Source of the DNA: an uncultured Gammaproteobacteria bacterium
Lineage (GTDB): Bacteria; Patescibacteriota; Microgenomatia; UBA1406; HO2-37-13b
Length of the DNA stretch: 64,000 nt
Assembly: GCA_964413645.1 (NCBI GenBank)
Contig: CAYPSA010000002.1
Coordinates: 86,508-150,507, forward strand
Direction of reading: 5' to 3'
In this document: positions 9,210 through 21,857 of the stretch, piece after piece
How the letters are laid out: each line of letters begins with the position of its first letter
How positions within the stretch are numbered: the stretch's first letter is position 1
Translations under genes and position numbers: made by a program
Notes under the pieces: model-generated
Database searches by the model: none
Seen by the model: the letters and a program-made list of their open reading frames with translations, nothing else
What the model was told of the DNA's origin: nothing

Positions 9210-10427
9210 ATGAATATTTTTAATTCGCTGGGATCAAACTATTCCAAATCGTTTGTAAAAAAAGCGCTATTTGCCAAAAATAATGTAGCAGACGTTGATA
9301 AATTGATTGGGTTTTTGGGGCAAACATACGATGGGGAAGTGCATGTAACACATAAGGGCCGCGATGCACTTACGCTTGCTCTTCAAGCTGCACATATACC
9401 TCCACAGGCAAAGGTGGTCATTAACGGGTTTACGTGTATCGCCGTTTATAATGCCGTTGTAAAAGCAGGGTGCACGCCCGTAGTACTCGATATTGACCCA
9501 GCCACCTTGCATTTTGAACCTGAAACACTGAAAAAAGTTCTGGAAAAAGATGGTGCAATTAAAGCTGTCATCGTGCAAAACACGCTTTCATACCCATGTA
9601 ATATTGTCACATTAAACGACGTCTGCAAAAAGTACAATTGCATCCTCATCGAAGATGGAGCTCATTGCGTAGGAACCAAATACGATAACGGTAAACATGT
9701 AGGAACTGTTGGGGATTTGGTCGCACTTTCATTTTCACAAGATAAAATTATCGATGGAATAAGTGGGGGAGCGCTTATTATCCGAAATAAATCATTTCAG
9801 CGATTTTCTCCGCCCAGTCCCATTACTCGAAGTCAGCGTATGGAGATAAAGGACCGATTGTACCCACTCCTGACAACGCTCATCCGCCGAACCTATCCGT
9901 ACTTCGTAGGTCGCATACTCCATTTTTTCTTAAAAATATTCAACGTACTTCCTAAACCAGTCGCTATTAATGATAAGAATTACACACTTTCATCATTTTG
10001 TGCCCAGTTAATCCTGTACGCATACGAAAGAAGTGCGCGCAATATTTCCCACCGCCAACATATTGCACAAATATATCATCAATATATTGACCCGTCAGTC
10101 CAATCGGGCTTTATCGGGAAGCATATTTTAACGAGCGCTAATTTGCGATTTCCAATTTTTGTACAAAATAGGGACAAACTCATCTCTCACCTCGCCGCGC
10201 AGGGAGTGTATGTAGGCGATATTTGGTACGACGCTCCAATCGCTCCCGCTTCAAACATACAATATGAGATCGTGGGAGAGAATGGAGAGACAATTGAAAA
10301 AAGCGCTTCAAACGCTCAAAAAATCGCCGACACAATTATTAATTTACCCACACACGAACATGTTACCAGCGCGCACGCAATGGCAATAAGTGAGATAATA
10401 AACCAATGGTTGAAACAAAACAAATAA
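9210..10427 (+). CDS. DegT/DnrJ/EryC1/StrS-like PLP-dependent aminotransferase family protein
   Basis: 405 aa with GRDALTLAL, FTCIAVYNAVVKAGCTPVVLDID, IEDGAHCVG and SFSQDK (candidate PLP lysine). Confidence 0.7.
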   Translation: MNIFNSLGSNYSKSFVKKALFAKNNVADVDKLIGFLGQTYDGEVHVTHKGRDALTLALQAAHIPPQAKVVINGFTCIAVYNAVVKAGCTPVVLDIDPATLHFEPETLKKVLEKDGAIKAVIVQNTLSYPCNIVTLNDVCKKYNCILIEDGAHCVGTKYDNGKHVGTVGDLVALSFSQDKIIDGISGGALIIRNKSFQRFSPPSPITRSQRMEIKDRLYPLLTTLIRRTYPYFVGRILHFFLKIFNVLPKPVAINDKNYTLSSFCAQLILYAYERSARNISHRQHIAQIYHQYIDPSVQSGFIGKHILTSANLRFPIFVQNRDKLISHLAAQGVYVGDIWYDAPIAPASNIQYEIVGENGETIEKSASNAQKIADTIINLPTHEHVTSAHAMAISEIINQWLKQNK

Positions 10428-11425
10428 TTGAAAAGGGGGAGTGGGATGCTTTTTTACAAACTCATGATGAGGCGAATTTTCTACAATCATGGGAATGGGG
10501 AGAGTTTCATGAACGAATCAATCATCCGATAATTAGAACCGGATTTTATGAGAATAATACTTTAATAGGGGTAATGCTTGCGGTTGTTGAGCCTGCTCGC
10601 CGCGCACGGTATCTTACAGTGCCAGGCGGGCCAATTATTGACTGGGAAAATCTTGAACTGATTAATTCAGTCGGTAATGCAATGAGGAATATTGCGAAAG
10701 AAAACAATTGCGTCTTTGTGCGCGTACGTCCTCAGCTACTCAATACGCATGTCTCAAATGGAATTTTCAAGCACATAGGATTTATTCCTGCACCAATCCA
10801 TTTGCACGCACAGCTAACGCTCCAACTTGACCTAACTCAAAGCGAGGAAGAAATCATGATGCAAATGCGCAAAAATACGCGGTACGAGCTTAAAAAGGCA
10901 CTGTCTGGAGACATTTCCGTGAAAACTTCTACAAATCCCGAAGATATAAAGCCGTTTTACGATCTTCAACTTGAACTCGCAAAGCGTCAAAAATTTGTGC
11001 CATTTTCCTACGAATATTTACATGAGCAATTTAGCGTATTTGCCACACAAAATATGGCTTCACTCATGAGTGCATACCACGGGGAAAGCTTACTGGCTCA
11101 AGCTTTCATTATTTTTTATGGAAATGAAGCAATATATCATTACGGTGTAAGCACTCCTGCTGGTCGTGAGTATCCGGGCGCATATTTGCTACAATGGGAA
11201 GCGATAAAAGAGGCTAAAAAACGAGGCATGAAACGCTATAACTTCTGGGGCATTGCCCATGAGCACGAAAAGTATCATCGATTTTATGGATTATCTATTT
11301 TTAAACGAGGATTTGGTGGGGAAGAAGTGGAATATTTGCCAGCACAAGATTTGATAATAAGTAGTGCGCGATATTTTGTGAATAAAGCTATTGAAAATGT
11401 AAGAAAACGGGTAAGAGGAGTTTAA
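10406..11425 (+). CDS. FemAB-family peptidoglycan bridge-forming aminoacyltransferase (FemX-like)
   Basis: 339 aa with FLQSWEWGEF, MRKNTRYELKKA, YHYGVS and FKRGFGG, characteristic of the FemA/FemB/FemX family. Overlaps the upstream gene by 22 nt. Confidence 0.8.
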   Translation: MVETKQIIEKGEWDAFLQTHDEANFLQSWEWGEFHERINHPIIRTGFYENNTLIGVMLAVVEPARRARYLTVPGGPIIDWENLELINSVGNAMRNIAKENNCVFVRVRPQLLNTHVSNGIFKHIGFIPAPIHLHAQLTLQLDLTQSEEEIMMQMRKNTRYELKKALSGDISVKTSTNPEDIKPFYDLQLELAKRQKFVPFSYEYLHEQFSVFATQNMASLMSAYHGESLLAQAFIIFYGNEAIYHYGVSTPAGREYPGAYLLQWEAIKEAKKRGMKRYNFWGIAHEHEKYHRFYGLSIFKRGFGGEEVEYLPAQDLIISSARYFVNKAIENVRKRVRGV

Positions 11426-11714: not shown

Positions 11715-13121
11715 ATGAAGCTTTACAATACGTTTTCCCGACAAATTGAAGAATTAAACCCACTCAACCCTCCTGCCGTTACGTTTTACAGCTGTGGACC
11801 TACGGTATATGATTTTACTCATTTAGGACACTTAAGAAAATTTACCAATGACGATCTGCTCAAGCGCACGCTTACTATGCTTGGTTACAAAGTAAATCAT
11901 GTAATGAATATTACCGATGTGGGGCATTTAACAGGCGATACGGATGATGGGGAAGACAAGCTTGAAAAAGGCGCAAAGAAAACCGGTAAAGATGTGTGGG
12001 AAGTTGCAGAATTTTACACGAAGCAATTTGTTGATTCGCTTAATACACTCAATATCCTGCCTCCTTCCACAATGCCTAAAGCTACAGATCATGTGGCGGA
12101 AATGATCGAACTCATCAAGAAACTCCAGAAAAAAGGATTTACCTACACGACAACTGAAGCCATATATTTTGATACTCAAAAATTCGCTGATTACGGAAAA
12201 CTTTCAGGCCAAAAATTAGAAGAAAAAAAAGTGAGTGTTCGTGAAGAAGTACATACAGACCCTCAAAAAAAACATCCGGCTGATTTTGCCTTATGGTTTT
12301 TTACCGTTGGTCGATTTGCCGACCATGTTATGCGCTGGGACGCCGACTTTGGAGAAGGGTTTCCTGGCTGGCACATAGAATGCAGTGCTATGAGCATGAA
12401 GTATTTGGGGGAATCGATCGATATTCACAGTGGGGGAGTTGATCATATTCCCGTACATCATGAAAATGAAATCGCTCAAAGCGAAGCCGCAACCGGAAAA
12501 CCATTTGTTCAGCTTTGGTTTCACAGTGCTTTTTTAAATGTTGAAGGACAAAAAATGAGTAAATCATTAGGAAATTTCTACCGCATTGAAGATCTGGTCG
12601 AAAAAGGAGTGTCTCCGATGGCTCTACGCTATTTGTACTTGCAAACCCACTACCGTCAACCCATGAATTTTACGTTTGATGCGGCCAAAGGAGCTACGAG
12701 CGCGTTCAATAACTTACGAGAGATGATTCTAGCTCTCAAAAGCCAGACAGAGAGAACGACACTTTCAACCGACAAATTAGATCAACTCGATGATTATCGT
12801 CAACAATTTTTAACCGCTATTCAAAATGATTTACAAATTCCACAGGCACTTGCAGTTATGTGGTCAATGTTAAAATCAAATATTCCATCGGGCGATAAAT
12901 ACGATCTGGCTCTGGAGTTTGATGAAGTATTTGGATTGGGACTGGCACATGTTTCAGAAGAAGAAATTCCCGAGGAAATTATTGCGTTAGCTCAAAAGCG
13001 CCTCGAAGCCCGAAAAGCAAAAGATTATGAGACAAGCGATATGTTGAAAAAAGAGATCGCGGAGAAAGGGTATAGCGTGGAAGATTCAGCTGAGGGTTTT
13101 AAAATAAACTTGAAAAAGTAA
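11715..13121 (+). CDS. cysS: cysteine--tRNA ligase
   Basis: 468 aa with class I motifs HLGH and KMSKS, plus the conserved CGPT and HIEC regions. Confidence 0.93.
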   Translation: MKLYNTFSRQIEELNPLNPPAVTFYSCGPTVYDFTHLGHLRKFTNDDLLKRTLTMLGYKVNHVMNITDVGHLTGDTDDGEDKLEKGAKKTGKDVWEVAEFYTKQFVDSLNTLNILPPSTMPKATDHVAEMIELIKKLQKKGFTYTTTEAIYFDTQKFADYGKLSGQKLEEKKVSVREEVHTDPQKKHPADFALWFFTVGRFADHVMRWDADFGEGFPGWHIECSAMSMKYLGESIDIHSGGVDHIPVHHENEIAQSEAATGKPFVQLWFHSAFLNVEGQKMSKSLGNFYRIEDLVEKGVSPMALRYLYLQTHYRQPMNFTFDAAKGATSAFNNLREMILALKSQTERTTLSTDKLDQLDDYRQQFLTAIQNDLQIPQALAVMWSMLKSNIPSGDKYDLALEFDEVFGLGLAHVSEEEIPEEIIALAQKRLEARKAKDYETSDMLKKEIAEKGYSVEDSAEGFKINLKK

Positions 13122-13129
13122 ATATTCGA

Positions 13130-13137
13130 TGTATAAT
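13130..13137 (+). promoter_or_regulatory. extended -10 box (TGTATAAT) of the leader upstream of the ATP-grasp operon
   Basis: TGTATAAT lies 6 nt before ATG 13144. The 15-mer TATAATATAGCTATG is identical to the hisS -10/start region (20601-20615). Confidence 0.45.
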
Positions 13138-13143
13138 ATAGCT

Positions 13144-13212
13144 ATGGTTCGAAAAAATTTATCAATTATTATTAACTGGTTTTACCTTACGCCTCGGCGG
13201 AGGTTTATATAA
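13144..13212 (+). CDS. candidate 22-codon leader ORF (MVRKNLSIIINWFYLTPRRRFI)
   Basis: The ATG has the leaderless geometry. Codons 18-20 are CGG CGG AGG. The stop lies inside an AT-rich hairpin (13202-13234). Speculative. Confidence 0.25.
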   Translation: MVRKNLSIIINWFYLTPRRRFI

Positions 13213-13234
13213 GTTGTAAACTTATATTTAAACC

Positions 13235-13260
13235 AAACCGCCTTAAGGGCGGTTTTTTTT
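13235..13260 (+). terminator. intrinsic terminator (cysS terminator and/or attenuator of the downstream operon)
   Basis: AAACCGCC-TTAAG-GGCGGTTT stem-loop (CCGCC 13238-13242 / GGCGG 13248-13252), followed by a T8 tract (13253-13260) that runs directly into ATG 13261. Confidence 0.7.
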
Positions 13261-14292
13261 ATGGGAAACAGAAAAGAAGAGACAATTAAACACCTTTCCA
13301 CACGTATTGACCAGCATAGTATTGACCATGTCGATTTTGGTGATTGGCAGTTCAATAGAGGGCCAGAACTTGCTGTGCAAAAAGATGAGGGGTTATTACC
13401 ATCACAAGAAATGCTGGATCGATTTGCTAGAGAATATTCACCTAGGCCTGGATATAGCAATTGGATGTACGATAATCTAGGAGTTCCCTCTCCCATAATT
13501 CGTGTAGATTTTTCACCAGAGAAACCTGATTATCCATATGAATTTGAAGCGCGACCTGCGGGCTTAGGTATTTATACAGAATTTTTTGGCGGTAAAGAAC
13601 AAGTCGGCAGGTATTTTGCGGGTTTGAGCGAATATTTAGGAAGACCTCTTGGTGTTCAAGTTCTTCCCAGCGTATTCGGTGGTGAAGGTAAAAAAGATCG
13701 CAGTTTAGACTCTCGGACCTTTGCAAAAAACGCCGGCCTACCTTTTTTTGAAAATGGTACAAGACCTAATGAGGAATATTTATTATGGGCTCGCGGCGGA
13801 GAAGAAGATATTGAAGCTGTTGGTTCTGATAGACTTTCTGCAATTGAAGCACAATCGCTAACTCCGGTGAGAGACCATGGAAATAAGGAGTATTTAGCTC
13901 GGATGGGACTTGCTACTGTATTATGCGATACAGCTGAAATAGATTTCGATACAGCTTTTTGTATTAAACCAATATATGGCTCTAAATCTGATGGTGTAGG
14001 AATATTTGTGCCTGATGGAAAAAAATTACCAGGGACTTCTACTCGTACCCAAATTCTGCGCTTAAGGGATTATAATGATGCAAAAGGAGGATCTCTTGTG
14101 CAGGAATATATACCACCAGCACTTGTTTCGGAAGAAGGTCAAAAACAGCAATTTATGATTTTCAGAATATTCGCCGCATTTATGCCTGAAACAGGTCAAT
14201 ATGAAATGTTTGGAGGTACGTATTTCACTCGACCAAATGTTAAAATTCATGGCGCAAGTGATGCTTTAGTTGGTAAAGTTGAAATTACATAA
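13261..14292 (+). CDS. GspS-like / circularly permuted ATP-grasp amidoligase (predicted)
   Basis: 343 aa. Motif order is RVDF (81-84), YEFEARPAGLG (93-103), HGNKEYL (206-212), IKPIYGSKSDGVG (235-247), LVQEYI (279-284), FRIF. The E-x-[N/E]-A-x-P metal/ATP segment lies N-terminal to the K-P..G-x-G loop, as in glutathionylspermidine-synthase-like permuted ATP-grasp enzymes. Confidence 0.6.
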   Translation: MGNRKEETIKHLSTRIDQHSIDHVDFGDWQFNRGPELAVQKDEGLLPSQEMLDRFAREYSPRPGYSNWMYDNLGVPSPIIRVDFSPEKPDYPYEFEARPAGLGIYTEFFGGKEQVGRYFAGLSEYLGRPLGVQVLPSVFGGEGKKDRSLDSRTFAKNAGLPFFENGTRPNEEYLLWARGGEEDIEAVGSDRLSAIEAQSLTPVRDHGNKEYLARMGLATVLCDTAEIDFDTAFCIKPIYGSKSDGVGIFVPDGKKLPGTSTRTQILRLRDYNDAKGGSLVQEYIPPALVSEEGQKQQFMIFRIFAAFMPETGQYEMFGGTYFTRPNVKIHGASDALVGKVEIT

Positions 14293-15236
14293 TGAAGAAG
14301 AGTCAAATACATCTTTATACAGATATTTCAGGAAATAAAATTAATACTACTTTATATAAATTTGGTTCTACAAATAAAAAAGGCATTTATATACAAGGAG
14401 GTATTCATGGTGGTGAGGTAACATATTTTATTTTTGCAAAATTATATCAATGGCTTACTAAAAACGAAGCCAATCTTAAGCAAAATATAACACTTGCTCC
14501 CATGATAAATCCAGTTGCCTGGAATCAGCGTATCTATTACTATACTGCTGGCAAATTTGACTTATATAAAGGTAAGGATTGGAATCGAAGTTACGGGAGT
14601 GAAAAGCAAAATACGTTGTCCGAACGAATGTCAAAAAGCATTCTTGATATGGCGAGGGCTCACGACTTTGTGATAGACTTACATACGGCCCGCACTAGCG
14701 CTCCTTATTTAATCTACACTGATAATTCGTTGCGGACCTATATTCTAAAATACGGGCTTGCATATAATTTTTTCATAGACCTTAATAAAGAAAGCAATAA
14801 AAAGTTCGAGGGTACACTCAATCATGCCTTGAAGGAATTAGGTATACAGTGTGTAACATACGAATGTGGCTCTCATGACTCACATAATGAAGAAGACATT
14901 AATGAAGTTTCTAGATCGATACTCTCATATTTACAAGATTCTTCCACCGCTACCTCGACTAGTAAGCCCGATCAAAAACGCTCAATTTTCACTCAAGTTA
15001 ACACGATCTTTGCAGAAATAAGCGGTTTCATTAATTATCTAATATCTCCTCGAATGCATGTAGAAAAAGGTACGCCTCTAATGGAAATATACTCATCAGG
15101 CGATTTAAAAACAACTTATGTTATTAAAAGCCCAATTGACGGTATAATTCTTGAATTATCAAAGACTCACATTTGTTGGGAAGGAGACGAGCTTATTAGA
15201 ATTGTCCCCACCGAGGCAATTCAAAATTATGATTGA
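14292..15236 (+). CDS. succinylglutamate desuccinylase/aspartoacylase (AstE/AspA, M14-like) family zinc deacylase
   Basis: 314 aa with zinc-ligand motifs GGIHGGE (H-x-x-E) and DLHTA, and a C-terminal beta-hybrid tail VEKGTPLMEI..SPIDGIILEL. 1-nt TAATG overlap with the upstream gene. Confidence 0.75.
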   Translation: MKKSQIHLYTDISGNKINTTLYKFGSTNKKGIYIQGGIHGGEVTYFIFAKLYQWLTKNEANLKQNITLAPMINPVAWNQRIYYYTAGKFDLYKGKDWNRSYGSEKQNTLSERMSKSILDMARAHDFVIDLHTARTSAPYLIYTDNSLRTYILKYGLAYNFFIDLNKESNKKFEGTLNHALKELGIQCVTYECGSHDSHNEEDINEVSRSILSYLQDSSTATSTSKPDQKRSIFTQVNTIFAEISGFINYLISPRMHVEKGTPLMEIYSSGDLKTTYVIKSPIDGIILELSKTHICWEGDELIRIVPTEAIQNYD

Positions 15237-16539
15237 TACGAATAGTACCGTCAACACCCATGGCAGATATGGGCGGTTTTTAGAGAAATATATTTCATTC
15301 AAATCTGTTTCAACCAGTCTATTATACAAATCTGAGCTTAAAGAGTGTTCTGTATGGTTAAAAAATATTTTTGAGGAAAATGGCTTTTCCACTCAACTCC
15401 TTACCGGCTATGGAAACCCCATAATTTTAGCCTCGTATCAAGTAAATACATCTCTCCCAACGTGCCTCATTTATGGTCACTACGATGTTCAACCCGCCGA
15501 TGTAAGTGATGGGTGGGATAGTGACCCGTTTACCCTCCGAAATGATGGAAACAAACTCTACGCGCGGGGAGTTGCGGACAATAAAGGACAAACGCTTATT
15601 CACATGGTAAGTGTGTTTGACCTAATTAAAGAGAATAAACTAGGTATGAATGTCATTTTTTTACTTGAAGGAGATGAAGAAACAGGCGGGGCAGATTTTA
15701 ATAGATTTATCGCCGATCATAAAGAAAAATTAAACGCAGATTTTGTACTAATTTCCGATGGGGAAATGAAAGGAAATAAACCCACTATTGAGGCTGGATT
15801 ACGAGGTGGGTTTAATATGACGCTCACTGTTACTACTGGTCAAAAAGACCTTCATAGCGGCTTGTATGGTAGTGCAGTACCCAATGCGATCCACGAGCTC
15901 TCAAAAATTCTTAGCAAAATTCATGGCGAAAGAAACAAAATTTTAATACCCGGATTTTATGATAACGTCGATCCGCTACCCGTTACAAACTCTATGAGCA
16001 GCGTGAGTTCTCCAAGAGAGCATACACTGGAGAATTTTAGTGAACACAATTTTTACAATCAAACAGGACTCATGCCTGCAATTGAGGTCTCAGGTATTCA
16101 AGCAGGCTATAGTGGAGAAGGGTATAGAAATAGTATTCCCGCATCAGCTACTGCAAAAATCAATGTTCGGTTAGTTAAAAGCCAAGAGCCAGAAGTGCTT
16201 TTTAACATGTTTGAACAATTTATTAAAGACTCTCTTCCTCTTTATGTCTCCTACCTACTTACATTTGATCATGCACATAATGCAATTAAGCTCGATACAG
16301 ATAATAAATACGTTCTAAAAGCCTCAACAATTATCAAGAATGTCTATAACATGGAACCAATATTTACCTATTCCGGCGGCGCTATTCCGGTAGTGGAATT
16401 ATTCACCAATCATCTCAAAATACCCACTATCTTGGCAAATTTAGCAAATGAAGACTGTAATATGCATGCGCCTAACGAGAATTATGACATTGAGTTCATA
16501 AAAAAGGGTCTACAATTCTCAAAACAGTTCTTTTCGTAA
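15229..16539 (+). CDS. M20-family metallopeptidase (dipeptidase/deacylase, ArgE/DapE/CNDP-like)
   Basis: Start taken at ATG 15229 (MIDTNS...), overlapping the upstream stop by 8 nt; the ORF-track start 15151 lies inside the upstream gene. Motifs: LIYGHYDVQP, RGVADNKG, LLEGDEETGG. Confidence 0.85.
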   Translation: MIDTNSTVNTHGRYGRFLEKYISFKSVSTSLLYKSELKECSVWLKNIFEENGFSTQLLTGYGNPIILASYQVNTSLPTCLIYGHYDVQPADVSDGWDSDPFTLRNDGNKLYARGVADNKGQTLIHMVSVFDLIKENKLGMNVIFLLEGDEETGGADFNRFIADHKEKLNADFVLISDGEMKGNKPTIEAGLRGGFNMTLTVTTGQKDLHSGLYGSAVPNAIHELSKILSKIHGERNKILIPGFYDNVDPLPVTNSMSSVSSPREHTLENFSEHNFYNQTGLMPAIEVSGIQAGYSGEGYRNSIPASATAKINVRLVKSQEPEVLFNMFEQFIKDSLPLYVSYLLTFDHAHNAIKLDTDNKYVLKASTIIKNVYNMEPIFTYSGGAIPVVELFTNHLKIPTILANLANEDCNMHAPNENYDIEFIKKGLQFSKQFFS

Positions 16540-20597: not shown

Positions 20598-20606
20598 TGG
20601 TATAAT
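20598..20606 (+). promoter_or_regulatory. extended -10 box of hisS (TGGTATAAT)
   Basis: TGnTATAAT lies 6 nt before ATG 20613, with no SD. Confidence 0.5.
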
Positions 20607-20612
20607 ATAGCT

Positions 20613-21857
20613 ATGTCAGACGACAAAATTCAAACATTAAAAGGATTTCGGGATTTTTTGGGGCCGCAGGCTCGAGCTCGCCAGTGGATGATTACTCAAA
20701 TCAGAGAAGTTTTTGAACTTTTTGGCTTTGAACCCCTTGAAACTCCTGCGTTGGAGTATTCTGCGCTTTTAACTGGGAAATACGGGGAAGAAGCTGATAA
20801 ATTGATGTACACATTTCAAGATCGTGGCGGTCGCGATGTTGCGCTCCGTTATGACCAGACCGTGCCTACTGCACGCGTTATTTCACAGTATAAAAATGAT
20901 CTAGCGATTCCCTATAAACGATATCAAATCCAACCAGTATGGAGAGCAGACAAACCTCAGAAAGGAAGATATCGCGAGTTTTTCCAATGCGATATTGACA
21001 TTTTAGGAAGCACCTCGCCATTAGCCGACGCAGAAATCATGACATGCACCTATGCGGCTTTTAAGAAAATTGGGTTCAAAAATGTAAAACTTCTCATTAA
21101 TGATCGAAAAACACTCGTTGCCACACTCGAAAAATACGCTACCGGTAGTGCTTCAGTATTTTCGATTATACAAACTATCGATAAATTGGACAAGGTTGGT
21201 AACGATGGAGTTGTTAATGAACTTACTCAGAAAGGACTAACCCCGCAAGTAGCAGAAAGGGTTCTTAACGACACCCAAAACATTCCAATTTCGGACAATC
21301 TTGGGCAAATTTCTAACCTAACTTCTTCTCTAGGGGTTCCTGCTGAAAATTTGGTCTATACTCCTACTTTAGCTCGAGGTCTAGACTATTACACCGGCCT
21401 TATTTTTGAAGTTATCGTACCTGAATATCCTACAGGCTCACTAGGCGGAGGAGGACGATATGACAATTTGATTAATCAGCTATCGGGAACCGATATGCCC
21501 GCTGTGGGAATAGCATTTGGCTTTGATCGAATGATAGATGCGGCCCAAGATTTGAATTTGATTACAGATGCTCAAAAGGGGACAGACGTACTTGTAACCG
21601 TGTTTAACGAAGAACTCGCACAAACATCAGCGCAAGTTGCAAATCAGCTACGCTCTGCTGGGGTTAAAACCGAGATTTATCCTGCTGCCGATAAGCTTGA
21701 AAAGCAACTTAAATTTGCCGATAAAAAAGGAATTTCTTACGTAGTCGTTATCGGACCCGAGGAAGTAGAAAAAGATTCGGTTACTCTAAAGAATCTAAAA
21801 ACCCGCGATCAAAAAACGCTAACACTATCAGAACTTGTTGCATCGCTGTCATTCTGA
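20613..21857 (+). CDS. hisS: histidine--tRNA ligase
   Basis: Start at MSDDKIQTLKGFRDFLG (the ORF-track start 20394 is an upstream extension overlapping the divergent gene). Class II motifs are present: FRYDQTVP-like ALRYDQTVP, YRYQPVWR-like, GGGRYD. Confidence 0.93.
   Translation: MSDDKIQTLKGFRDFLGPQARARQWMITQIREVFELFGFEPLETPALEYSALLTGKYGEEADKLMYTFQDRGGRDVALRYDQTVPTARVISQYKNDLAIPYKRYQIQPVWRADKPQKGRYREFFQCDIDILGSTSPLADAEIMTCTYAAFKKIGFKNVKLLINDRKTLVATLEKYATGSASVFSIIQTIDKLDKVGNDGVVNELTQKGLTPQVAERVLNDTQNIPISDNLGQISNLTSSLGVPAENLVYTPTLARGLDYYTGLIFEVIVPEYPTGSLGGGGRYDNLINQLSGTDMPAVGIAFGFDRMIDAAQDLNLITDAQKGTDVLVTVFNEELAQTSAQVANQLRSAGVKTEIYPAADKLEKQLKFADKKGISYVVVIGPEEVEKDSVTLKNLKTRDQKTLTLSELVASLSF

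Follow-up and report, generated by a model that had tools for sequence, protein, structure and literature searches.

How does transcription enter an operon whose first codon lies directly against an intrinsic terminator? The question is raised by the window analysed here (the whole 64-kb stretch of DNA, from contig CAYPSA010000002.1), in which the first ATG (13261) of a three-gene operon, headed by a putative ATP-grasp ligase gene, directly abuts the U-tract of a terminator, and an element of 117 bases (13144-13260) lies between the upstream cysS gene and this operon. Sequence comparison and RNA folding suggest that positions 13110-13260 probably form a self-contained cassette of promoter, leaderless leader open reading frame (ORF) and terminator, through which the ATP-grasp/hydrolase operon would be controlled by ribosome-mediated transcription attenuation. 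An initial annotation of this DNA had described a mini-ORF leader with alternative anti-terminator and terminator structures, and had proposed that it senses Arg-tRNA. Its coordinates for all sequence features proved correct on direct reading, and the same architecture was recovered in front of all homologues of the first operon gene and in a large family of leaders with a covarying long helix; the arginine signal, as discussed below, was not supported.

The leader region and its alternative folds

The features on which the argument draws are as follows.

11715-13121, + strand: cysS (cysteine--tRNA ligase), the gene upstream of the element (TIGR00435, E 5e-131, above cutoff)
13110-13137, + strand: sigma-70-type promoter, -35 TTGAAA (13110-13115), 16-nt spacer, -10 TATAAT (13132-13137), 11 of 12 consensus matches
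13144-13212, + strand: leader ORF of 22 codons plus TAA, MVRKNLSIIINWFYLTPRRRFI, read from the sequence, without a Shine-Dalgarno (SD) motif
13165-13185, + strand: candidate regulatory codons Ile8-Ile9-Ile10-Asn11-Trp12-Phe13-Tyr14, proposed because the anti-terminator stays free as long as the ribosomal P-site has not passed codon 13
13184-13193, + strand: segment 1, ACCUUACGCC, the partner of segment 2 in a weak anti-antiterminator hairpin (13184-13205, -9.5 kcal/mol)
13196-13206, + strand: segment 2, GGCGGAGGUUU, the 5' strand of the anti-terminator, which holds CGG CGG AGG (invariant columns 67-71 of family alignment A2)
13202-13234, + strand: A/U-rich hairpin of 14 bp over the leader stop codon (minimum free energy (MFE) folds; -8.7 kcal/mol alone)
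13230-13242, + strand: segment 3, AAACCAAACCGCC, able to pair with segment 2 (anti-terminator) or with segment 4 (terminator), from the 2:3 fold
13235-13260, + strand: intrinsic terminator, AAACCGCC-UUAAG-GGCGGUUU stem-loop (13235-13255, -12.1 kcal/mol) plus U8
13261-16539, + strand: putatively regulated operon of three genes (Pfam, NCBIfam; called genes in locus L001)
13261-14292, + strand: putative ATP-grasp ligase of 343 amino acids (aa), from Foldseek on a weak model only
14292-15236, + strand: AstE/AspA-family hydrolase (Pfam/NCBIfam)
15229-16539, + strand: M20 dipeptidase-like protein (best score dipeptidase, E 1e-97, over ArgE)

The -35 box lies within the 3' end of cysS, and TTGAAA-16-TATAAT was the top plus-strand promoter-like site in a consensus scan of 12 kb. 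The sequence TGTATAAT at 13130-13137 includes the -10 hexamer, and a short leader ORF with a usable start lies upstream of the operon, its ATG (13144) being placed 6 nt past that hexamer; both GATGTATAAT and the 6-nt distance to the ATG were conserved in loci L003, L006 and L198, with the spacer sequence altered in L006. The 15-mer TATAATATAGCTATG, which had been noticed as common to the leader and the hisS start, has an exact second copy at 20601-20615, 5' of a HisRS-like ORF (chance expectation 0.22 matches), and both cysS and this hisS-like ORF have a leaderless layout like that of the leader ORF. Across the window (G+C 38%), a lax SD-like motif was found for only 5 of 46 large non-overlapping ORFs, and a -10-like hexamer stood 5-9 nt 5' of the ATG in ten of them, cysS included (TACAAT-6-ATG); such close hexamers were seen at the cysS start (11715), at starts 6148 (minus strand), 34318, 39159 (minus strand) and 62563, and also at 20601-20615. 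The host thus seems to make little use of SD motifs, leaderless mRNAs are apparently frequent, and the window suggests that leaderless translation is widespread in this Roizmanbacteria genome. In a genome with such SD-poor, leaderless-prone genes, translation of the mini-ORF from a 5'-terminal AUG is credible; the predicted mode is leaderless, the AUG of the leader ORF being at or beside the 5' end of the mRNA. The same paucity of SD motifs means that the earlier argument that no room is left for an SD at 13261 carries little weight. Its counterpart for the promoter stood: no separate promoter for the operon lies past the terminator, and expression would need terminator read-through.

The start at 13261 fits an alignment of the N-termini of three homologues, in which M1 is invariant, and the terminator that precedes it ranked first among terminator-like sites in the 12-kb consensus scan (9 pairs, 5 of them G-C, followed by a T tract). 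The leader ORF is therefore separated from the first structural gene by an intrinsic terminator with a G+C-rich stem of 8-9 bp and U8. The elements of its alternative pairings are GGCGG (13196-13200), CCGCC (13238-13242) and a second GGCGG (13248-13252), followed by T8 (13253-13260); the first GGCGG lies within leader codons 18-20, CGG CGG AGG (13195-13203), ahead of the stop codon TAA (13210-13212).

Folding of this region supported the proposal that the first GGCGG could pair with the CCGCC arm as an alternative structure, since segment 2 pairs with 13230-13242 in the MFE fold of the nascent RNA, the 2:3 anti-terminator (13196-13242) having an energy of -18.8 kcal/mol. The AT-rich hairpin (13202-13234) described over the leader stop was likewise present in the MFE fold (fold z-score -2.4), and is predicted to nucleate and extend the anti-terminator. 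Among full-length conformers, the terminator form reached -31.0 kcal/mol versus -28.9 kcal/mol with the anti-terminator forced, a gap of approximately 2 kcal/mol. When the footprint of a ribosome was masked on the nascent RNA (13144-13246), the anti-terminator formed when no ribosome was present and for P-site positions up to codon 13, whereas a P-site on any of codons 14-22, which covers all the Arg codons and arrival at the stop, blocked it. Ile8 to Tyr14 are hence positioned such that a stalled ribosome would free segment 2, and the Arg codons are not.

The mechanism that we favour runs as follows. Transcription would begin at or beside the AUG at 13144. If the ribosome were absent, or delayed at or before codon 13 on the Ile-Ile-Ile-Asn-Trp-Phe-Tyr codons, GGCGGAGG would stay free, segment 2 would pair with AAACC..CCGCC (13230-13242) across the A/U hairpin, the terminator at 13235-13255 would be prevented and the polymerase would enter the operon. 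A fast ribosome, located in the last eight sense codons or at the stop, would instead cover GGCGGAGG, with its rare CGG CGG AGG, so that the terminator would form and transcription end at U8. The first ATG of the operon, right after the U-tract, would need no SD in an SD-poor host. What the analysis shows is the sequence features, the family membership, the conservation, the covariation of the long-range helix in the family and the thermodynamic alternatives; where transcription starts, that the ORF is translated, that the element switches and which signal it reads are inferred.

Aquatic metagenomes contain exact and near-exact copies of the locus, and a version with 69% identity in the 343-aa protein was found on JAYPGZ010000003.1, a Candidatus Roizmanbacteria metagenome-assembled genome (MAG; L198), which places the source of the window in the Microgenomates of the Candidate Phyla Radiation (CPR). 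An element of the same kind lies directly 5' of all three other homologues of the 343-aa gene (69%, 61% and 40% identity), and synteny with cysS is maintained in L001, L003, L006 and L198. Between the window and L003/L198, 115 of the 117 nt of the element are identical (98.3%), whereas the 3' end of cysS reaches 82-83% and the downstream gene 64-67%; conservation above that of both flanking genes indicates strong selection on the nucleotide sequence. The window, L003/L198, L004 and L005 all retain the GGCGG(G)AGG motif, the CCGCC/GGCGG terminator and the A/U hairpin. The leader of L004 (61% identity) reads (MA)VFFWFFTRANRRRYL and retains the three arginines (RRR) through an in-frame 3-nt indel, and that of L005 (40% identity) reads MNNYFLSIIYVFHIWTLTIVRAGG, ending in VRAGG and a stop in place of RRR. 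In L006, a close strain (approximately 2985-2995, equivalent to window 13190-13199), a C-to-U change turns Pro17 to Leu and makes the loop of the 1:2 hairpin a C(UUCG)G tetraloop, and neither of the two remaining substitutions in the ORF alters the peptide (ATT to ATC, AAC to AAT), a pattern compatible with selection acting on the RNA hairpin as well as on the reading frame.

A leader family in Microgenomates and related bacteria

Other copies were sought with a pattern derived from four orthologous sequences, GGCGGRRGK..CCGCC..GGCGGKKTTTTT. This pattern was far less specific than estimated and also caught many G+C-rich terminators of unrelated phyla, which were filtered by the requirement for an A/U-rich middle, by nhmmer and by a covariance model. 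A total of 109 full-length copies were found with nhmmer, 88 of them unique, though many of these sequences are closely related and the counts do not represent independent events. The window copy was matched with an E-value of 7.4e-16. A covariance model (R1) and alignment (A2) were built from 50 members with MAFFT, and in cmsearch the window copy scored 73.2 bits (E 1.3e-11) over model positions 1-121, a full-length family match whose score is somewhat inflated, as the window sequence is among the rows of the model. No second copy was found within the 64-kb window with R1, all other matches having E-values of at least 0.99. The family consensus is ATGAAAAAnCAGGTTTTATCAATCATTTTCGTCCTCTTTATTCTTATTACCGCTTAATAT-GGCGGGAGG-ATGAGTGATTGATAAAACC-(A-rich)-CTCCCGCC-loop-GGCGGG-U7.

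The R1 matches came from Roizmanbacteria (11 records), Levybacteria, Pacebacteria, Microgenomates and MAGs of the 'Patescibacteria group'. The family is large and apparently undescribed, in tiny-genome Microgenomates and other CPR bacteria: no description of it or of CPR attenuators was found in the literature searched, and it is not in Rfam 15. Neither the window element nor 14 typical loci reached the gathering score of any Rfam 15 family, sub-threshold matches to leaders and small RNAs (sRNAs) being terminator-driven (for the window element, Trp_leader 25.8 versus 41 bits, Phe_leader 26 versus 55 and Leu_leader 20.4 versus 50). Elements of this type were also seen in several third-party-annotation MAGs titled 'uncultured Gammaproteobacteria bacterium' and in one MAG titled Limisphaerales (L132, L151, L158, L161, L164, L182, L186, L196, L200, L201, L215, L224, L225; L179/L228). 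Some of these elements are highly similar to those of CPR MAGs (L151 to L213, L200 to L191), and the taxonomic labels are probably wrong, or the contigs mis-binned.

Across the family, the leader ORF is constrained in its start, its length and the position of its stop. A -10 box ends 6-16 nt 5' of the leader ATG in 61 of 73 members versus 29% in shuffles, 33 of them with an extended TG, and an SD-like motif precedes only one of 76 leaders. An ATG-initiated ORF of 13-25 codons, ending between -7 and +21 of GGCGG, is present in 76 of the 83 unique full-length copies that carry this motif (34% in shuffles, 9-21% in the other frames); its stop lies 2-7 nt 5' of GGCGG in 49 of the 76, and 8-21 nt past the start of GGCGG in the remaining 27. 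The encoded peptides are hydrophobic, with L+I+V+F at 52% versus 27% in neighbouring proteins and D+E at 1% versus 13%, and lack conservation at the C-terminus. Among the codon positions, the second shows the strongest conservation, indels in the ORF body are multiples of three, and the synonymous share of single-nucleotide differences is 0.35 in frame versus 0.24 and 0.09 out of frame.

In typical members, ORF codons 4-12 and the stretch 3' of GGAGG form a long-range helix of 22 bp. In the 50 aligned members, the proposed structure of long helix, inner hairpin and terminator was 86% paired, versus 41-55% when the partners were slid; 15 pairs showed compensatory changes, the observed values were reached by none of 500 shuffles, 10 of the 14 pairs in the long helix covary, and the terminator stem was 97.7% paired. 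The anti-terminator strand GGCGGGAG is complementary to CUCCCGCC, which overlaps the 5' arm of the terminator (89% paired, with a core that is invariant because the collection pattern required it). In copies outside the pattern with a shifted terminator register (GGGCGG, GCGGGG, GGCGGGGU), the upstream motif was altered in parallel, an anecdotal observation. When ribosome masks were applied to the typical members L053, L044 and L005, the nascent RNA without a ribosome made the long 1:2 helix (-36 kcal/mol in L053), leaving the terminator free to form; a P-site on codons 6-12 gave the anti-terminator, and a ribosome near the stop did not, as in a textbook attenuator. Family elements are always co-oriented with and immediately 5' of a gene, and the gene start lies within 3 nt of the U-tract in at least 14 members other than the window copy. 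Two other explanations of the conserved motifs were discarded, namely TTATCAATCA as a DnaA-box-like or operator inverted repeat in DNA, as its arms covary as RNA pairs including G-U, and GGAGG as the SD of a downstream mini-ORF (TTG TAA in the window, GTG.. elsewhere), which is not conserved.

The window copy shares with the GGCGGGAGG family the close -10 box, the TTTATCAAT (Leu-Ser-Ile) codons, TTACC, GGCGG(G)AGG, the CCGCC/GGCGG terminator with its U-tract and the abutting gene start. It differs in being 8 nt shorter between TTATCAAT and TTACC, in its RRR frame, in its local A/U hairpin and in having no strong anti-antiterminator. Most pairs of the long-range helix are non-canonical in this copy, only the -9.5 kcal/mol hairpin being left, and the nascent RNA favours the anti-terminator; the local A/U hairpin stands in for the 3' strand of the long helix, as it also does in L020 and L067. 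The 8-nt shortening shifts the reading frame through GGCGGAGG, and RRR is the result.

Some contigs carried two or three copies within 8-13 kb, some of these in tandem. In L064 (149-242), a second leader type, MEEVAKFLMVIFFLIILFAFD, follows the first terminator in tandem, with its stop codon TAG inside the 5' arm of its own terminator (TAGGCGG...CCGCCAGCCTA plus T7), and this type was also present 3' of the elements in L022, L024, L034, L059, L101 and others. From its layout, finished translation should disrupt the terminator of this second type, opposite to the logic of the first element.

The probable signal, the downstream genes and rival explanations

The codons 12-36 nt 5' of GGCGG were taken as the sensor window of each leader. 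Several leaders have amino-acid-specific runs, given here with the product of the gene that they precede.

FY-rich (YFTYFYF, SSYYFYFF, LFYFYFY): DAHP-synthase family, PF00793 (three lineages)
FY-rich: prephenate dehydratase (L084)
FY-rich: transaldolase (L060, 5913-6035)
FY-rich: class I/II aminotransferase (L053, 1236-1326)
WW: TrpB-like enzyme (L072/L156, Pacebacteria)
LLLL: LeuA-like HMGL protein (L052, 14435-14516)
M-R-M-I-M: MetE (L201, 4832-4957)
HHHH: HisG (other phyla)

Such a match between leader codons and the downstream pathway is the signature of amino-acid-responsive attenuation, and validates the architecture. The loci with amino-acid-specific leaders of the same terminator design also include L123/L153, L132 and L143 (two in tandem), and several of the genes behind leaders of this kind are unexpected in supposedly auxotrophic CPR bacteria. 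The largest leader class, VLSIIFVLFILITA, fronts diverse genes, including those for ATP sulfurylase/APS kinase, class III aminotransferase-like proteins, methyltransferases and GCS2-like ligases, together with many proteins of 560-1200 aa without a family match. Among proteins without a Pfam or NCBIfam match, a 560-aa family (..LYWLRHPSYRWNGSSW..; L040 8632-10451, L103 5616-7423, L185 3796-5609) was always found behind poly-Phe leaders (NFFFFFYFY, TNFFFFFFN, SFGFFFF), which hints at a role in aromatic amino-acid metabolism.

For the window copy, the signal is most likely slow decoding of Ile and aromatic codons, when too little charged tRNA is available for Ile, Trp, Phe or Tyr, or a general translational slowdown. 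The aromatic/Ile signal is proposed because the sensor windows of all leaders of the ATP-grasp operon carry Trp together with Phe or Tyr: SIIINWFY in the window, AVFFWFFT in L004 and YVFHIWTL in L005, the residues at the positions of Ile8-Tyr14 being VFFWFF in L004 and YVFHIW in L005. Arginine is probably not the signal. The leader reads through GGCGG in 27 of the 76 family members, and does so in three frames, giving AGG and a stop, GGR.., or RRK or RRR; such varied frames over constant nucleotides indicate that RRR is the RNA motif (C/A)GGCGGAGG read in one frame, its nucleotides being conserved and the encoded amino acids not. The Arg codons are moreover the anti-terminator strand itself, so that a shortage of Arg-tRNA would raise termination, the opposite of classical relief. 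It can be speculated that CGG CGG AGG may act as an intrinsic brake that holds the ribosome over this strand and replaces the lost RNA anti-antiterminator.

An arginine response of reversed sign, the one direction that the geometry permits, is unlikely. In it, scarce Arg-tRNA would stall the ribosome on CGG CGG AGG and increase termination, and with plentiful arginine the ribosome would soon leave the strand and read-through would rise, making the operon arginine-induced. It would account for the presence of RRR throughout the window clade and in L004 despite the in-frame indel, for the use of CGG and AGG, the two rarest Arg codons in the window genes (6.8% and 4.8% of Arg codons, respectively), and for an AstE/AspA-family hydrolase downstream. 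The check proposed with the initial annotation, that orthologues keep the mini-ORF and its Arg codons, held for the mini-ORF in all of them, yet L005 has no RRR and most family ORFs stop 5' of GGCGG or cross it in other frames, and it is the invariant RNA motif that sets these codons. Once at the stop, 8 nt further on, a ribosome would mask the strand equally, and the Arg codons add little discrimination. The suggested link of both hydrolases to arginine pathways through AstE and ArgE is weak, as the M20 protein resembles a dipeptidase and is replaced in L005 by an S51 peptidase. A reading without any sensing, in which the hairpin and U8 are a possibly leaky terminator of cysS, the mini-ORF and the GGCGG repeat are incidental, and partial read-through from the cysS and 13110-13137 promoters is constitutive, appears very unlikely. 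The consensus scan found no terminator of cysS itself before 13235, the window copy lacks a strong 1:2 helix, and terminator-like sites in the region are not enriched (11 versus 10.8 expected), all of which such a reading would accommodate; a plain terminator would, however, not need the conserved promoter, ATG and ORF end, nor explain why the element accompanies every homologue of the 343-aa gene, even that of L005 with 40% identity, why it is conserved far above both flanking genes, or why a family model comprising the ORF and the GGCGGAGG motif matches it with an E-value of 1e-11.

The transcript of approximately 117 nt could itself be the product, either encoding a small hydrophobic protein (a membrane micro-protein or type I toxin-like peptide) or acting as a trans sRNA, with control of the operon secondary. 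The unit is complete from promoter to terminator, the hydrophobicity of the peptides is in keeping with the first form, and trans-acting peptides and sRNAs derived from attenuators are known, for instance peTrpL/rnTrpL (PMC7298713, PMC7968998). We nonetheless judge this highly improbable, given that the elements are always co-oriented with and directly 5' of a gene, often with 0-3 nt from U-tract to ATG, that the leader amino acids track the downstream pathway, and that the peptides have only 13-25 residues with unconserved C-termini. Least probable of the four is an arrest peptide of the ErmCL/ErmAL/TnaC type, in which the L-S-I-I-F-V-L or S-I-A-V-I motifs would stall the ribosome only with a small molecule. 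Conservation of the family peptide does go past composition at the L-S-I and V-L positions, and the peptide resembles IFVI, IAVV and +x+, which are known macrolide arrest motifs. The conserved peptide largely coincides with a paired RNA strand, though, the downstream genes are metabolic and not for resistance, other leaders are plainly amino-acid-specific, and the window peptide has no IFVL core.

Several points weigh against ribosome-mediated attenuation of this operon, which we continue to regard as probable. The transcription start site, the terminated RNA and the read-through are predictions. The coding signal in the family is moderate and confounded with RNA pairing, and covariation is uninformative on the GGCGG/CCGCC anti-terminator helix, whose core is invariant through the sampling pattern. 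The candidate regulatory codons of the window copy are mixed (3 Ile, 1 Asn, 1 Trp, 1 Phe and 1 Tyr) and not a clean run, and their link to a pathway is conjectural. Retention of RRR across the in-frame indel in L004 makes a role of arginine possible in this clade. Because the strong anti-antiterminator helix has been lost, the default state of the window copy may be read-through, with a dynamic range that is possibly small. A much broader and more doubtful proposition is that one modular cassette, made up of a leaderless hydrophobic or aromatic leader ORF, the common GGCGGGAGG/CCCGCC/GGCGGG RNA core and a terminator, stands before dozens of unrelated metabolic genes per genome in Microgenomates and other CPR bacteria as a global amino-acid-supply 'ribulon' for hosts with few transcription factors, of which the window copy would be a derived form, with a ribosome braked on rare Arg codons replacing the RNA anti-antiterminator; the density of up to three copies in 13 kb, some in tandem, bears on this idea.

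The label 'ATP-grasp' for the first operon gene is weakly supported. The 343-aa protein had no sequence match in Pfam, NCBIfam or PDB, including a PDB profile search, and an AF2 model built from four sequences was of low confidence (pLDDT 55); Foldseek with this model returned ATP-grasp enzymes only (YjfC, Ddl), weakly (TM 0.2-0.3), and the protein is tentatively assigned to that fold. A search for its relatives in genome contigs gave none, and the family is extremely rare, with four clusters in 5.8 billion proteins. For the M20 gene, the mechanical ORF, starting from TTG 15151, shares 86 nt with the AstE-like gene, whereas gene calls on identical contigs place the start at the equivalent of 15229 (436 aa); the resulting 8-nt overlap with the AstE-like gene suggests translational coupling within the operon. 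Just 5' of cysS, positions 9210-11425 encode a DegT-family aminotransferase and a FemAB-family peptidyltransferase, and the small minus-strand ORFs between these genes and cysS vary by strain (69 aa in the window, 82 and 93 aa in L006).

Relation to known attenuators

CPR bacteria are uncultured, with genomes of approximately 1 Mb and few recognisable regulators, and to our knowledge their gene regulation is almost unknown. If the proposed mechanism is true, classical ribosome-mediated attenuation works in these bacteria on leaderless transcripts, one RNA scaffold is reused with varied sensory codons before many genes, and the proteins of 560-1200 aa, together with the ATP-grasp/hydrolase operon, are tied to amino-acid supply, which offers a handle on their function. 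At the locus itself the annotation would also be corrected, the conspicuous Arg codons being an RNA motif and not the sensor.

The classical attenuators (trpL, pheL, hisL, leuL, ilvL/ivbL; RF00513, RF01859, RF00512) resemble the layout proposed here in having a short leader ORF, three or four mutually exclusive segments and a terminator just 5' of the first structural gene. In them, as predicted for the window element, the position of the ribosome chooses between anti-terminator and terminator, and a ribosome at the stop masks segment 2. The ilvL leader has mixed hydrophobic regulatory codons, which the window leader recalls. Unlike the classical systems, the window element has no homology to them in sequence or structure (20-26 bits in Rfam against thresholds of 41-55), its leader is leaderless and SD-less, its ORF runs through segment 2 with a weak 1:2 pairing, its genes encode an ATP-grasp ligase and peptidase-like hydrolases rather than a biosynthetic pathway, and its host belongs to the CPR.

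Induction by slowed leader ribosomes is also known from bmrB-bmrCD of B. subtilis (PMC4191407) and from mef/mel (PMC4335068), where translation inhibitors slow the ribosome on the leader and bring about read-through. These systems share with the mechanism proposed here a leader peptide, a terminator/anti-terminator pair and the induction of read-through by ribosome slowing; they differ in controlling efflux and resistance genes, whereas no resistance genes lie downstream of family elements. By analogy, the mycobacterial 'Cys ribulon' may be regarded as the nearest conceptual relative. As described for it (Canestrari et al., bioRxiv 10.1101/834739), leaderless polycysteine short ORFs act as attenuators, in which pausing remodels the downstream RNA, and many loci carry one kind of sensory ORF. 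That system has a leaderless short ORF as first cistron and forms a ribosome-directed regulon, as proposed here; it differs in that the Cys runs act translationally by unmasking the ribosome-binding site, in contrast to the intrinsic terminator and the hydrophobic/aromatic codons of the window element, and the two have no sequence relation. The principle is a familiar one, and what is new is the host group, the leaderless format, the use of one RNA scaffold with different sensory codons, and the derived layout of the window copy, in which the ribosome would serve as anti-antiterminator.

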